Part shown: one piece after another, positions 1,330-32,000 of the stretch | Numbering within the stretch: the first letter of the stretch is position 1 | Layout: the number at the start of each line of letters is the position of its first letter | Source of the DNA: Candidatus Saccharimonadota bacterium | Lineage (GTDB): Bacteria > Bacillota_I > Bacilli_A > Mycoplasmatales > Hepatoplasmataceae | Direction of reading: 5' to 3' | NCBI GenBank assembly: GCA_027925225.1 | Contig: AP027131.1 | Location: 120,001 to 152,000 of the forward strand | DNA length: 32,000 bases | Position numbers and translations under genes: made by a program | The notes under the pieces: model-generated | Databases searched by the model: none | What the model was told of the DNA's origin: nothing | What the model saw: only the letters and a program-made list of their open reading frames with translations

Positions 1330-1415
1330 GGAGGGGTAGCGAAGTCTGGTTAAACGCGGATGACTGTAGATCATTTCCTTCGGGTTCGGGGGTTCGAATC
1401 CCTCTCCCTCCACCA
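1330..1415 (+). tRNA. tRNA-Tyr (anticodon GTA), type II with long variable arm, CCA encoded
   Basis: Acceptor GGAGGGG/TCCCTCC; anticodon stem GATGA/TCATT with loop CTGTAGA; long variable arm TTTCCTTCGGGT; T-loop GGTTCGAATCC; ends ACCA. Confidence 0.95.
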
Positions 1416-1419
1416 GTAT

Positions 1420-1494
1420 TGGCCCGTAGCCAAGAGGCAAGGCATCTGGTTTTGGTCCAGAAATTCGTAGGTTCGAGTCCTGCCGGGCCAGCCA
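1420..1494 (+). tRNA. tRNA-Gln (anticodon TTG), CCA encoded
   Basis: Acceptor TGGCCCG/CGGGCCA; anticodon stem TCTGG/CCAGA with loop TTTTGGT; T-loop GGTTCGAGTCC; ends GCCA. Confidence 0.95.
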
Positions 1495-1498
1495 ATAT

Positions 1499-1574
<76 letters not shown>

Positions 1575-1577
1575 TTA

Positions 1578-1663
1578 GCCCAGGTGGTGGAATGGTAGAC
1601 ACGAGGGACTTAAGCTCCCTTGGCAGTATTGCTGTGCGGGTTCAAGTCCCGCTCTGGGCACCA
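1578..1663 (+). tRNA. tRNA-Leu (anticodon TAA), type II, CCA encoded
   Basis: Acceptor GCCCAGG/CTGGGC; anticodon stem AGGGA/TCCCT with loop CTTAAGC; long variable arm; T-loop GGTTCAAGTCC; ends ACCA. Confidence 0.95.
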
Positions 1664-6477: not shown

Positions 6478-7677
6478 ATGGAAAAAAATAAAGATCATAG
6501 ACAATTGGGGATAGAGATGGATTTATTTTTTATTGATCCATTTGTAGGAAAAGGTTTTCCTATTTGATTACCTAATGGATTAATATTAAAAAATAAAATA
6601 AGAGATTTTATCATAGAACAAGAAAAAAAATATAATTTTGAATTAGTTGAAACACCAGTTATTGGGAGTGTTGAACTTTATAAAAAATCAGGTCATTATG
6701 ATCATTATAAAGAAAACATTTTTCCTATAATGAAATTAGATGAAGGGGAAGAATTTGTTTTAAGACCAATGGCTTGTCCTCATCATATTATGATTTATAA
6801 ACATAAGTTAAGATCATATAAAAATTTGCCGATAAGACTTGCAGAACAAGTTTATCAATTTAGATATGAATCATCTGGTGGGCTTTTGGGGCTTGAAAGA
6901 GTAAGAGCAATGAATCTTACTGATTCTCATATTTTTTTAAGAGATGATCAAATTGAGCAAGAAATTGAAAATGCTTTTAATATTGTTAAATCAACTTTAG
7001 AAAAATTTAATATTAATATTGATTATATTGAACTTGCACTTCATGATCCAAAAGATAAAGAAAAATATCATCAAGATGATGAAAAATGAAGATTAGCAGA
7101 ACAAAGTTTAAAAAATTTTTTAGAAAATAAGAATATAAAATATATTTCAAAAATTGGTGAAGCAGCATTTTATGGACCAAAAATAGATATTCAAATTAAA
7201 ACAAAATTAAATCATATAATTACACTTTCAACTATTCAACTTGATTTTGTACTTCCGGAAAAATTTGATATTTTTTATGTTGATAAAAATTTAAATAAAA
7301 AAAGACCAATAATGATTCATAGAGGACTCATTGGTACTTATGAAAGATTTATTTCTGTTCTTTTAGAACAAACTCAAGGAGATTTTCCTCTTTGACTTGC
7401 TCCGATTCAAGTTGCTGTTGTTCCTGTTTCAAAATATCAATCAAATTATGCAAATGAAATTTATAATTCTTTAATAGATAATAATATTAGAGCAATTTTA
7501 GATGATACAGAAGAGAGATTATCAAATAAAATTAGAATTTTAAATGAAAGAAAAGTAAAAATTCAGTTAATTGTTGGCGAAAATGAAGAAAGAGATGGAA
7601 AAGTTTCTTGTAGATTATTAGGAAAAAAAGCAAATAAAATAGTAGTTTTAAAAGATATATTGAATTTATTTAAATAA
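6478..7677 (+). CDS. thrS: Threonyl-tRNA synthetase, catalytic core plus anticodon-binding domain only (399 aa; N1/TGS and N2 editing domains absent)
   Basis: Starts MEKNKDHRQLGIEMDLFF, the segment that opens the ThrRS class-II core. Contains MACPHH, motif 2 FRYESSGGLLGLERVRAMNLTDSHIF, MIHRGLIGTYERF and the anticodon-domain LAPIQVAVVPV. Frame 1 is closed upstream by TAA 6454-6456. Absorbs track ORF 6730..7089. Confidence 0.9.
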
Positions 7678-27106: not shown

Positions 27107-27862
27107 ATGAAAAATAACTTATTAAATTTAAAAGATAAATCAAAATTAATTCTTAATTTGGATGAAGAAAATATTTTAGAAACAAATAAATATTTTGTTT
27201 CTAAAATAGAAGAATTTTGAACAGATTTTAATAAAAATTATCAAGATTTAGAAAAAAAATATAGTAAATATTTAAATAACAAGAATTTCTTTTATCAGAA
27301 AGAATTTCTTATAAAAAAATCACCAATTATATTGTTAACAACCTTTTTTGAAAAAGAAAAATTATATTTTGTTGAAAGCTTAATAGAAAATTTAATTGAT
27401 AAAAAAGTGAATTTAAAAAAATTTAAAAATGTTATTTCCCTTGATGTTTGAAAATATTTAAATTTAGAAGAAATGACAAATGATTTATTTTCTATTCTTG
27501 CTTCTAAATATAAACAGCAAAAAGAAAAGATCTTAAAAATATCAAAATCCTTAGCAAATACTACATTAATTTCTTGATCAAATAAATGAGCAAAAACAAG
27601 TATAAAAGAAATAAAAACAGATAAAAAAATGGATGAATTAATAGAAGATATTGAAATTGAACCAACATTAATAATAATTGATAATGTTGATAAAATGGAT
27701 AATAATGGATGAGATTTAATAATTAAAATTTTTCAATTTTCTAAATTAAAAAATTTATGTTTTGTACTTATAATTGATTCTAATAAATTAGATGATATTA
27801 ATAAAGGGAAATTTTATTCATTAAAAAAATACATTAATTATCCTATTTTTGAACTTATTTAA
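27107..27862 (+). CDS. Hypothetical P-loop-fold protein, KAP-NTPase-like with degenerate Walker A (251 aa)
   Basis: ATG 27107 (AAAGGT 8 nt upstream) to TAA 27860-27862, open in frame 2 with 6 in-frame TGAs; absent from the track because it is fragmented. 'TLIIIDNVDKMDNNGWDLIIKIFQFSKLKNLCFVLIIDSNKL' resembles the KAP/AAA+ Walker B plus downstream strand. 'ISLDVWKY' resembles the KAP F-N-A-W motif. The Walker A position reads 'LLTTFFEKEKLYF' and lacks GxxGKT. Confidence 0.5.
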
Positions 27863-27914: not shown

Positions 27915-28403
27915 TTACAATATATTTACTTCATTAATATGTTTTTCAATTGCTTTATAAATAATTTCTTTTCTTTTTTTGAATTCTCCTAAGAAATTTT
28001 TTATTTCATTTTCTTGATATTTTTCTCAAATAAAATTATCTATTTTTTCAGTATTAACAGGAACCAATTTAAGATTTTCTTTTTTAATTAAAAGTAATTC
28101 AAATTTTCAAATTTTGTTTTTCCCATTTTTATAGTTATTTCTTATTTGGGATTTATTTTTTGAACTAGATTCTGATACAGCAATAATAAAATTTTTATTT
28201 TTATCATTGTGAATTATCACAATTGGTCTTGTTTTTTTATCATTATTCTTATCTCTTTTATATTCTTCGTCTGTATATTTTTTTTTCAATTTATGATTGT
28301 GTTTTTTTAATGAACTATTGTAATTTACTTGATATGCTTTAGTAGTAATGTTAACTTTAGAGCCAACATTTAAGTCATTTATATTCATTTTTTTGTACAG
28401 CAT
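27915..28403 (-). CDS. Hypothetical basic protein, possibly PemK/MazF-like fold (162 aa)
   Basis: Track ORF 28107..28403 (-) continues through two TGAs to TAA (complement of 27915-27917). The pattern 'VGSKVNI...KKTRPIVIIHNDKNKNFIIAVSESSSKNK...LLLIKKENLKLVPVNTEKIDNFI' resembles PemK/MazF (G.i..v...RP.vVls.d..n...v.vvP.Ts...v..dqi.tid..rl). Confidence 0.45.
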
Positions 28404-28495: not shown

Positions 28496-30415
28496 ATGAA
28501 TTCAAATGTTTTTAAACATAGAATAATAGAGAAAAAATGACAAAAATATTGAAAAAAAAATAATTTATTTAAAACTAATTTAAAAAGCAAAAAAGAAAAA
28601 TTTTATGTTTTAGATATGTTTCCTTATCCTTCTGGGTCTGGTCTTCATGTTGGCCATCCAGAAGGGTATACAGCAACTGATATTATAGCAAGAATGAAGA
28701 GAATGCAAGGTTATGAAGTTTTGCATCCAATTGGTTGAGATGCATTTGGTCTTCCCGCAGAGCAGTATGCTATTAAAACTGGAAATGATCCAAAAAGTTT
28801 TACAAAAAAAAACATTAGTAATTTTAAAAAACAATTAGTTTCACTTGGTTTTTCTTTTGATTGAAGTAGAGAAGTAAATACTTCTGATCCAAAATACTAC
28901 AAATGAACACAATGAATTTTTGCAAAACTTTATAGAGAGGGTCTTGTTGAATTAAAAGATATTGAAATAAATTGATCTGAATCTTTAAATACAGTACTTG
29001 CAAATGAAGAAATAATTAAAAATGAAAACGGCGAAGATGTAGCTGAAAGAGATGGATTGCCTGTTTTTAAAAAAAATATGAAGCAATGAGTAATTTTAAT
29101 TACTAAATATGCTGATAAATTATTTGAAGGATTGGATGATTTAGATTGGCCAGATTCTTTAAAAAAAATACAAAAAAATTGAATATATGAAAAAGATGAA
29201 AATGGTAAAAATAAATTACATCTAAAAGATTGGATTTTTGCAAGACAAAGATATTGAGGAGAGCCTTTTCCTCTTATTCATTTTGATGACGGGGAAATAT
29301 ATTTAATTCCAGAAAGAAAATATCCTGTTCTTTTACCAAAAATTAAAAATTATAAATTTTCTTTAGATGGAAAACCGGCGCTTTCTAAAGCAATAAAATG
29401 AAGCAATGTAAAAATAAAAGGAAGACATGGCATAAGGGATTTAAATACAATGCCACAATGAGCTGGTTCTTGTTGATATTTTATTGCTTATCTTTTAAAA
29501 AACAATAATAATTATTTGGCTTTAGATTCTTCTAAAGCTAAAAGTATTTTAGATAAATGGCTTCCAATTGATTTATATATTGGCGGAAGAGAGCATGCTA
29601 CATCGCACTTAATATATGCAAGATTTTGAACAATGTTTTTAAGTGATATCAATATAACAAAAATAAATGAACCATTTAAAAGAATATTTAATCAGGGAAT
29701 GATTCTTGGTGAAGATAATCAAAAAATGTCTAAATCCAAAGGAAATGTAATTAATCCAAATTTTTACATTGAAAAATATGGTGCTGATACATTAAGACTA
29801 TATGAAATGTTTATGGGTCCACTTGAAGATGTAAAATCTTGATCTAATAAAAGTATTCATGGAATGCACATTTGAGTAGAAAGAGTTTATAAATTTTTTA
29901 TTGGGGAAGCAATTTATATAAAAGATGAAGAAGTTTCATTTGAAAATAAAAAAGCATTTAATAAGCTTTTAGAGAAAATAAATAATCATTTTCCTAAATT
30001 AAAATTTAATGTTTCTGTTTCTGAAATGATGATTTTTATAAATACAGTTTATAAGAATCCAAGAATTTCAAAAGAAATGGCAATAAAGTTTTTACAAATA
30101 TTATCTTGTTTTGCTCCACATATTTCTGATGAAATATATTCTAAAATTAAAAGACAACAAAAAAGCATATCTTTTGTTTCTTGACCGATTAAATATGAAT
30201 TAAAAAAAGAAGAAGAATTAAAAACAATTTTACTTCAAATAAATGGAAAAGTAAGAGCAACTTTTCAAGTTAAATTTTCTTTTGACTTGGAAAATTTAAA
30301 GCAAAAAGAAATTTTAAAATTAATATGTAAATATGCGCCAAAATATTGTACTGATAAATCAAAATTAAAAAATATTTTTATTATAAAAAATAGAATTATT
30401 TCTATAACAGTTTAA
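28496..30415 (+). CDS. leuS: Leucyl-tRNA synthetase lacking the CP1 editing domain (639 aa)
   Basis: '[17 protein letters not shown]' (HIGH), '[15 protein letters not shown]', '[14 protein letters not shown]', 'RQRYWGEPFP', 'KMSKSKGN'. Frame 2 is open 28496-30415 with TGA=Trp and absorbs track ORF 29633..29842. '[33 protein letters not shown]' shows only about 12 residues where CP1 (about 190 aa) normally sits. Confidence 0.92.
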
Positions 30416-30530: not shown

Positions 30531-32000
30531 ATGAATGAAAACGATATTAAAAAATTAATATTAAAACTTAAAAAACATTTAATTTTTGATAAACAAGAAA
30601 TAAAAATTTTAGAACAATTTACAAAAACAGGAAATTTATTAAAATTTATCCAATACAAAGTAATTAATGAAAATTTAGCTGATGGAAATTTTAAAAGTTA
30701 TTATTTTTCAAATAAAGATTGAATAGAAAAAGAAATTTTAAAAAAATCAGATAATTACTGAAGCTTTGTAAAGGGTGAATCTTATAGTTTTGTAGATATA
30801 AGTTCTACTTTATTTTTCTTTTTGCTAAAACCCATTTTTCTTAATTTTAAAAGCAAAAATAGAAAGGTTTCTATAATATTTATTGATGAAAAGATTTATA
30901 AAAAATTAGGTAATTATGAATCAATTATGTTTTCTAAAGAATTATTTTTAGAAAACATAATTGAAAAAGATTTAAACAAATTTAAAGAAAAAAATTGTGA
31001 TTTTGCATTGTTTATTTATAAAAAAGTAAAAGATAAATCATATTTTAAATTTATTGATTATTTTTTATTTGAAAAAGAAGATTCTAATAATTTTTATTTT
31101 AAAATAAATAAAAAATCAATTGAACCTTTAGATTTTGAGGAAATTAATAAATTAAAAAATAAAAGTAAAATTTCTTTAAGTTTTGTTGAAGAAAAATCAA
31201 AAATTATTAGAGAAACCGTTAATAATAATATAGATTCTTTTCATAAAAAAATAATAGAAAAATTAAAAGATTCTAAAGAAAATAAAGAAATAAATTTTAG
31301 CGAAATAAATAATATGATTAAAAAAGAAGGAGAATCAATAAAAGAAATACTTGAAAATTATTTTAAAAATTTAGTAAATCAAAATTCAAATGAATTAAAT
31401 ATTGAAGGAAAATTAAAAGATATTATTCAAAAATTTAATAATAAATTAACTGAAATATTTGAGAAAAAAGAAACTTCTGAAATTTCAAATATTAATTTAT
31501 TAGAAGAAAAAATTAATGATTTAAAAGAAAAAATTGATGAAGAATTAAATGAGAGGTTTTTTGAATCAATAAATGTTGAAGGAATAATAGAATTAAATAA
31601 AAAAGAATTAGTTAATCAAATAGATAATTTAAAAATTGATATTAAAAGCGAGAGAGAAGATTTTTCAAAAACCTTAGATTTAAAGCTTCAAAAATTTTTT
31701 GAAAAAATTCTTAAATCAGAAGAAATAAATTCTACTTTTGATATTAACGATATTAAAAAGCAAATTAAATTTGAAAATGAAAAATTACAACAAATTTTTG
31801 ATAAAAAATTTGAAAAATATGTAGAAAATGTTCAAAAAAATAACACATCAATTGTTTCTTTTGAATTAAAAAATTTAAAAGATCAAATAAACTTTAGACA
31901 AAAAGAATTTGAAAAAACATTAACATCAAGTTTTGAAAATATTATCCAAAATCAAGAAAAAATAGGTAGTTTAAAATATGAATTAGAATCTTTTATAAAT
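30531..32000 (+). CDS. Large hypothetical protein: ~190-aa N-terminal globular region followed by an extended Lys/Glu/Asn-rich coiled coil (490+ aa, 3' end outside window)
   Basis: ATG 30531 (track ORF 30531..30722). Frame 3 stays open to the window end with only two in-frame TGAs. The sequence after about residue 200 is heptad-like (..LKEKIDEELNERFFESINVEGIIELNKKELVNQIDNLKIDIKSERE..). Confidence 0.6.

Follow-up and report, generated by a model that had tools for sequence, protein, structure and literature searches.

The sole leucyl-tRNA synthetase of a Hepatoplasma genome lacks the CP1 editing domain, apparently through a loss separate from that in Mycoplasma mobile

Leucyl-tRNA synthetase (LeuRS) without its CP1 editing domain has been treated in the literature as a peculiarity of Mycoplasma mobile. 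The enzyme of this species (3ZIU; Li et al., 2011, 2013; Tan et al., 2012; Yan et al., 2013, PMC3643597) is of bacterial type, about 635 aa long, with a nine-residue linker in place of CP1 and a tetrapeptide in place of the leucine-specific domain (LSD), and charges tRNA-Leu with neither domain present (PMC3643597). LeuRS of Mycoplasma has been reported as editing-defective, mistranslation being detected by mass spectrometry (PMC10057733). Several other systems are comparable in part. First, the degenerate-CP1 LeuRS of other Mycoplasma, and of the Hepatoplasmataceae genome G004 considered below, are also cases in which a Mollicute with a reduced genome has lost LeuRS proofreading; in these the domain is present with mutated editing residues (in G004, TTMPEY for TTRPDT), whereas in the enzyme described here it is physically deleted. 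Second, microsporidian LeuRS, as a review presents the work of Melnikov et al. (2018, via PMC7373986), has lost proofreading through a naturally occurring deletion, and the organism is host-restricted and has a reduced genome; by the same account, however, it is of eukaryotic or archaeal type, comes from an unrelated lineage and has lost the domain only in part (PMC7373986). Finally, an engineered CP1-deleted E. coli LeuRS bearing the M. mobile linker, as cited in the structural paper (ref. 17 in PMC3643597), aminoacylates with a short peptide for CP1; it is a laboratory construct, while the gene reported here is natural, conserved and the sole copy.

This gene, leuS, was found in a window of 32,000 nucleotides (the whole stretch of DNA that was analysed). 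The source is a Hepatoplasma, very likely ‘Ca. Hepatoplasma vulgare’ from the pill bug Armadillidium vulgare, and not M. mobile. Hepatoplasmataceae is the sister family of Metamycoplasmataceae, the Hominis group (PMC10928387, PMC3942034). The product is about 60% identical to the M. mobile enzyme from end to end, has a linker of the same length at the CP1 site and the same predicted fold. We consider it highly probable that it is the sole functional LeuRS of this Hepatoplasma, that CP1 was excised within Hepatoplasmataceae independently of M. mobile, and that editing was thereby lost as part of a wider loss of proofreading. The CP1-less architecture as such is known and already crystallised; the novelty lies in the lineage, in the independent origin, in a graded series found inside one family, and in two accompanying losses of editing.

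The leuS frame comprises 639 codons under code 4, with 17 TGA codons read as Trp, and is broken up when the window is translated under table 11; the TGA codons fall only at conserved Trp positions. The features of the gene and of related loci in the window are listed in Table 1. The protein belongs to the class Ia bacterial-type LeuRS by its signatures, Rossmann core and anticodon-binding domain, the CP1 editing domain of this class being absent. Pfam matches were obtained for PF00133 (tRNA-synt_1, 2.6e-50) and PF08264 (Anticodon_1, 1.2e-13), while the editing domain PF13603 had no match in the 639-aa protein or at the leuS locus. The catalytic residues are invariant across 42 CP1-less homologues. 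LeuRS chains are the top PDB matches both by sequence and by fold, and M. mobile LeuRS (3ZIU, 637 aa) aligns to residues 3-632 (E 3e-210), ungapped at the CP1 site. The initial annotation, made from the sequence, had described a 639-aa protein with intact HVGH and KMSKS in which a linker of about 12 residues between NWI and LKDW replaced CP1, and had pointed to a CP1-less precedent in M. mobile. The length and both signatures were reproduced by translation under code 4, the residue count is correct, and the precedent is real (PDB 3ZIU, with its nonapeptide linker; PMC3643597).

Table 1. Positions of leuS, its landmarks and related genes in the window.
Feature	Position	Strand	Evidence
tRNA-Leu(UAA), LeuRS substrate	1578..1663	+	ARAGORN
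thrS: 399-aa ThrRS without N1 (TGS) and N2 (editing)	6478..7677	+	TIGR00418, Pfam, alignment with relatives
leuS: 639-aa leucyl-tRNA synthetase without CP1, sole genome copy	28496..30415	+	ORF, Pfam, 3ZIU alignment, genome search
HIGH signature HVGH, residues 51-54	28646..28657	+	translation; invariant in 42 CP1-less homologues
ZN1 module remnant (NWSES...), no zinc ligands	28970..29065	+	alignments
Junction in place of CP1, N228-W246	29177..29233	+	translation, alignments, AlphaFold model
Tetrapeptide GEDN, residues 405-408, at the leucine-specific-domain site; corresponds to GKDG of M. mobile	29708..29719	+	alignments
KMSKS signature, residues 410-414	29723..29737	+	translation; invariant in homologues

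The extent of the deletion was defined by a MAFFT alignment with 29 CP1-bearing LeuRS from the same order. The stretch from NW to DWxF counts 21 residues in the Hepatoplasma enzyme vs 149-245 (typically 181-197) in the CP1-bearing ones, the alignment gap at the CP1 site being about 130-225 residues (typically 160-176). LeuRS of Thermus thermophilus (Tt) aligns as three pieces (query 9-232 to Tt 7-226, 227-408 to Tt 402-582, and 410-628 to Tt 637-866), and the alignment skips about Tt 227-411, which is CP1, and Tt 583-636, which is the LSD; therefore, both the body of CP1 and the LSD are absent. At the junction, E232-K240 (EKDENGKNK) pairs without gaps with the M. mobile nonapeptide KEEIDGKIT. 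The linker residues of the Hepatoplasma LeuRS (15 aa) align with the C-terminal tether of CP1, EEKGLGKGRVTYRLRDW.

An AlphaFold model of the protein, built on 42 CP1-less homologues (mean pLDDT 87.7), presents the junction as a beta hairpin with strands 231-233 and 239-241. Its best PDB matches in Foldseek were 3ZIU_A and 3ZIU_B (TM 0.83/0.85-0.92, rmsd 2.6 A, 575 columns), and against full-length LeuRS structures TMq is about 0.8; the predicted three-dimensional architecture is that of the 3ZIU type. By our reading, CP1 has been cut out at its base, with the two tethering beta strands joined as a short hairpin; what remains is the Rossmann catalytic core together with the anticodon-binding and C-terminal domains.

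Two other reductions of the protein have a different history. The four-residue form of the LSD site was found in 60/60 aligned LeuRS of the order, CP1-bearing or CP1-less; the absence of the LSD is thus ancestral to the whole order and not part of the CP1 reduction. The cysteine ligands of the ZN1 knuckle, which the initial annotation had reported as gone, are indeed missing, but this is not special to the Hepatoplasma enzyme. T. thermophilus has the ligands C..C..C..H, and relatives within the order retain at most the first Cys (NWC). Since this holds for CP1-bearing relatives as well, the zinc site must have been lost long before the CP1-less form arose. The first Cys is replaced by Ser in this LeuRS and in most Hepatoplasmataceae, in which the Hepatoplasma enzyme differs from that of M. 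mobile. We therefore rejected a protein-specific loss of either the zinc knuckle or the LSD, both losses being ancestral to the order.

The genome is represented by one contig of 662,108 bp (completeness/contamination 89.95/0.53) with 26 tRNA genes. Six-frame searches of this complete 662-kb genome yielded one leuS, together with the expected weak matches to ileS, valS and metS; no second leuS was found in them. These searches and the protein alignments covered the findings by which the initial annotation had proposed to refute itself: no recognisable CP1 is present within the 639 aa, and no second leuS in the genome. The missing proofreading might instead come from another protein: a full-length LeuRS encoded by a second gene, a CP1-like protein that stands alone, or some other factor acting in trans. 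Trans-editing proteins do exist for other synthetases, AlaX, YbaK and ProX among them, which lends this explanation some initial plausibility. Nevertheless, besides the single leuS, matches to PF13603 are confined to the CP1 domains inside ileS and valS, so that no free-standing CP1 was found in the genome; the only match resembling the ThrRS editing domain N2 is the editing domain of AlaRS; and no homologues of YbaK, ProX or AlaX have been reported in any Mollicute (PMC4014445). Such compensation in trans is thus very improbable.

Apart from its unusual length, nothing suggests that leuS is a pseudogene or was produced by misassembly. Its reading frame is uninterrupted and TGA is confined to the conserved Trp positions; 13 species of the family share the architecture, which is also represented by about 44 protein clusters from independent sources; and the gene is the only one for LeuRS in the genome. 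One relative (P0002) is 87% identical, and the nearest named proteins, the LeuRS of Ca. Hepatoplasma crinochetorum, Ca. H. scabrum and Ca. Tyloplasma litorale, show 61-66% identity. In relatives, CP1-less leuS evolves under purifying selection, with dN/dS of 0.05-0.18 between close pairs, well below 1. For this leuS and its nearest compared relative dS is 0.94, near saturation, and the dN/dS of 0.30 is a rough upper figure; because of this saturation, selection on exactly this gene is inferred from the relatives. The conservation across independent assemblies refutes a pseudogene or artefact, to which we assign a negligible probability. The enzyme would charge both tRNA-Leu species normally, as its status as the only copy, the presence of two tRNA-Leu genes and the analogy with the active, 60%-identical M. 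mobile enzyme suggest. ARAGORN identified two tRNA-Leu genes in the genome, UAA within the window and UAG outside it.

The distribution of the CP1-less form was established by a census of LeuRS across 398 genomes of the order, about 360 of which retain CP1. Contiguous CP1-less LeuRS of 630-642 aa was found in 13/14 species of the GTDB family to which the window belongs, the exception being G004, a member of another genus with a CP1-bearing LeuRS of 781 aa. G004 is a metagenome-assembled genome (75% complete, 4% contamination), and its basal placement rests on GTDB binning and the gene tree. In Metamycoplasmataceae, CP1-less LeuRS is encoded by M. mobile (G173), by 13/13 sampled species of one genus and by three further genomes, and in a third family by a single genome, G359. 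The CP1-less loci outside Hepatoplasmataceae were catalogued as L043-L059 and L075 (Metamycoplasmataceae and G359).

The relationships of these genes were reconstructed from the LeuRS core, with the columns of CP1, linker and LSD taken out (one gene, “quick” IQ-TREE search). In the resulting tree, the 13 Hepatoplasmataceae genes form one clade with the CP1-bearing G004 as its sister (97 and 97; 97% SH-aLRT), the Metamycoplasmataceae genes, CP1-less and CP1-bearing mixed, form a clade of their own (99), and G359 falls with its own family. In AU tests, forcing all 31 CP1-less genes together cost 82.6 log-likelihood units (p 0.0014), and forcing together the CP1-less genes of Hepatoplasmataceae and Metamycoplasmataceae cost 64.9 (p 0.0101), the latter rejection being only moderately strong. 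Retained junction residues also differ: they read NWI[YF]..LH[LI]xDW in Hepatoplasmataceae (NWIY..LHLKDW in this LeuRS) and NWIGK..TY[KH]LxDW in M. mobile and its allies (NWIGK..TYKLQDW in M. mobile). Two Metamycoplasmataceae genomes, of two other genera, have a shorter junction of 17 residues. From the core tree, the AU tests and the differing junction residues it follows that CP1 was excised on at least three occasions, always at the same hinge. By this comparison, the loss of CP1 in Hepatoplasmataceae is separate from that of the M. mobile group, which belongs to Metamycoplasmataceae and has a deletion event of its own, and the same deletion recurs in at least three families. The initial annotation had taken the gene for that of a lineage different from M. 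mobile, and the placement in Hepatoplasmataceae, with a loss that the tree and the AU tests make independent, bears it out.

A single event shared with M. mobile, through inheritance from a common ancestor or horizontal transfer of a CP1-less gene, would agree with the sister relationship of the two families (PMC10928387, PMC3942034), with the identical linker length in the two enzymes, and with an Ala that both carry in place of Ser in the motif DWxF-S-RQRYWG. We regard it as improbable: the core tree places CP1-less genes beside CP1-bearing genes of their own family, one CP1-less clade is rejected by the AU tests, and the junction residues are not the same. Moreover, CP1 is kept by many Metamycoplasmataceae and by the basal G004, so that one early loss would have to be followed by several exact re-insertions. 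The Ser of this motif is kept in 28/28 CP1-bearing genes where the motif was found, and is Ala in 28/31 CP1-less genes, Cys in 1 and Ser in 2, a change that spans independent losses; the position may mark a residue coupled to CP1. In the Hepatoplasma protein this column, compared across L001-L079, corresponds to Ala249 (window 29240-29242).

Within Hepatoplasmataceae, the order of events may be read from G004. Compared with T. thermophilus, its CP1 has TTMPEY for TTRPDT and LDDNRD for AHDQRD, with Tyr at the T252 position, and the substitution T252Y abolishes editing in E. coli LeuRS (PMC4695839). This suggests that the editing site was already dead when CP1 was removed, and the deletion within the family would then have come after a probable inactivation. 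The G004 gene (L020:1492-3837, - strand), the only CP1-bearing leuS of the family, encodes a shortened CP1.

With CP1 excised, Ile-, Met-, Val- or norvaline-tRNA-Leu would no longer be hydrolysed by the Hepatoplasma LeuRS once transfer has occurred, and fidelity would depend on the synthetic site, together with whatever tRNA-independent pre-transfer editing takes place. As there would be no site for the mischarged 3' end, those Ile-, Met-, Val- and norvaline-tRNA-Leu that pass the synthetic site would reach the ribosome. [quoted passage not shown] However, the M. mobile enzyme of the same architecture, 60% identical, was reported to be editing-defective with mistranslation in vivo (PMC10057733), and the editing parts of ThrRS and PheRS are also lost in this genome, to which relaxed selection on fidelity is a better fit than compensation.

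The state of these other synthetases is as follows. First, ThrRS matches TIGR00418 at positions 167-559 only and begins at the catalytic core; its only Pfam domains are tRNA-synt_2b and HGTP_anticodon. The absence of both N1 and N2, noted at the outset in contrast to an M. mobile ThrRS described as lacking only N1, was confirmed by the comparison of the two, as the M. mobile protein (579 aa) retains N2 with HxxxH and CxxxH. The family shows a graded series: N2 is complete, with CxxxH, in G004; gutted and devoid of HxxxH and CxxxH in three genera (518-576 aa in total); and absent from Hepatoplasma proper (399-413 aa), the 399-aa protein of this genome being the shortest. Second, the PheRS beta subunit (678 aa) scores 12.7 bits for the B3/4 domain vs a cut-off of 29.3, and reads GNIYLYLN where E. 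coli reads GQPMHAFD, the editing His being replaced by Leu. The cut-off is reached by 0/14 genomes of the family, while M. mobile (51.6 bits) and others pass it. The PheRS beta gene lies outside the window, at G000:C1:231156-233189 (L116:1501-3534). Finally, IleRS (WTTTPWT), ValRS (TTRPET, PAHDFFD) and AlaRS (HSSAH, CGGTH) are full length and keep their editing motifs. Outside the family, the ThrRS of G359 (L096) has an N2 of normal length without HxxxH or CxxxH, and the B3/4 match in this genome is weak (16.6 bits); G359, whose CP1 was lost independently, is apparently another lineage in which these three editing sites have decayed together.

The LeuRS deletion would be one part of a stepwise, family-wide loss of proofreading, in which the ThrRS N2 has also gone and the PheRS B3/4 has eroded. 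A 2020 review knew of no Mycoplasma genome with three or more editing-deficient synthetases (PMC7373986). This genome looks like such a case, the PheRS member being judged from sequence alone; should PheRS editing truly be dead, the genome would exceed the limit of two editing-deficient synthetases proposed per Mycoplasma genome (PMC7373986). A bolder reading, which we put forward tentatively and with slightly more doubt than belief, is that Hepatoplasmataceae constitute a second independent and more extreme natural experiment in proofreading-free life, in which LeuRS, ThrRS and PheRS editing would have been lost stepwise (by point inactivation at first, gutting next and clean deletion last) in a single family of symbionts of invertebrate guts, the genome would run on three editing-null synthetases, and the Ser-to-Ala change would mark a residue coupled to CP1. 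Unlike M. mobile, Hepatoplasma lives in an isopod, a host without adaptive immunity. With such a host, relaxed selection seems a likelier driver than immune evasion by a “statistical proteome”; if the three-enzyme loss is true, a host without adaptive immunity argues against antigenic diversity and for relaxed selection or genome streamlining.

Far from being confined to M. mobile, the clean excision of CP1 is a repeated event in this census. Hepatoplasmataceae underwent it, as did at least one lineage of Metamycoplasmataceae and a single genome from a third family, and the structural hinge at which CP1 was removed is always the same. The graded series of Hepatoplasmataceae makes it possible to study in what order translational quality control was dismantled: at one end stands a basal lineage whose ThrRS N2 is intact and whose CP1 is apparently inactivated, at the other this genome, which has lost both domains and in which PheRS B3/4 is eroded. 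No paper linking Hepatoplasma with LeuRS or aminoacyl-tRNA editing was found in the full texts that were searched; the word “synthetase” is absent from the two Hepatoplasma genome papers (PMC10928387, PMC3942034).

Promoter-like sites around leuS were not above the level of shuffled sequences in a promoter and terminator scan, and the three terminator-like matches all lie within coding sequence. The tRNA-Leu(UAA) gene closes a tight cluster of four tRNA genes on the + strand (window 1330-1663; Tyr-GTA, Gln-TTG, Lys-TTT and Leu-TAA) spaced by 3-4 nt. Three ORFs flank leuS, none with a Pfam match: 27107-27862 (+, 251 aa), 27915-28403 (-, 162 aa) and 30531-32000 (+, >490 aa). The last one runs off the window and sits in its most AT-rich part (16.7% GC).
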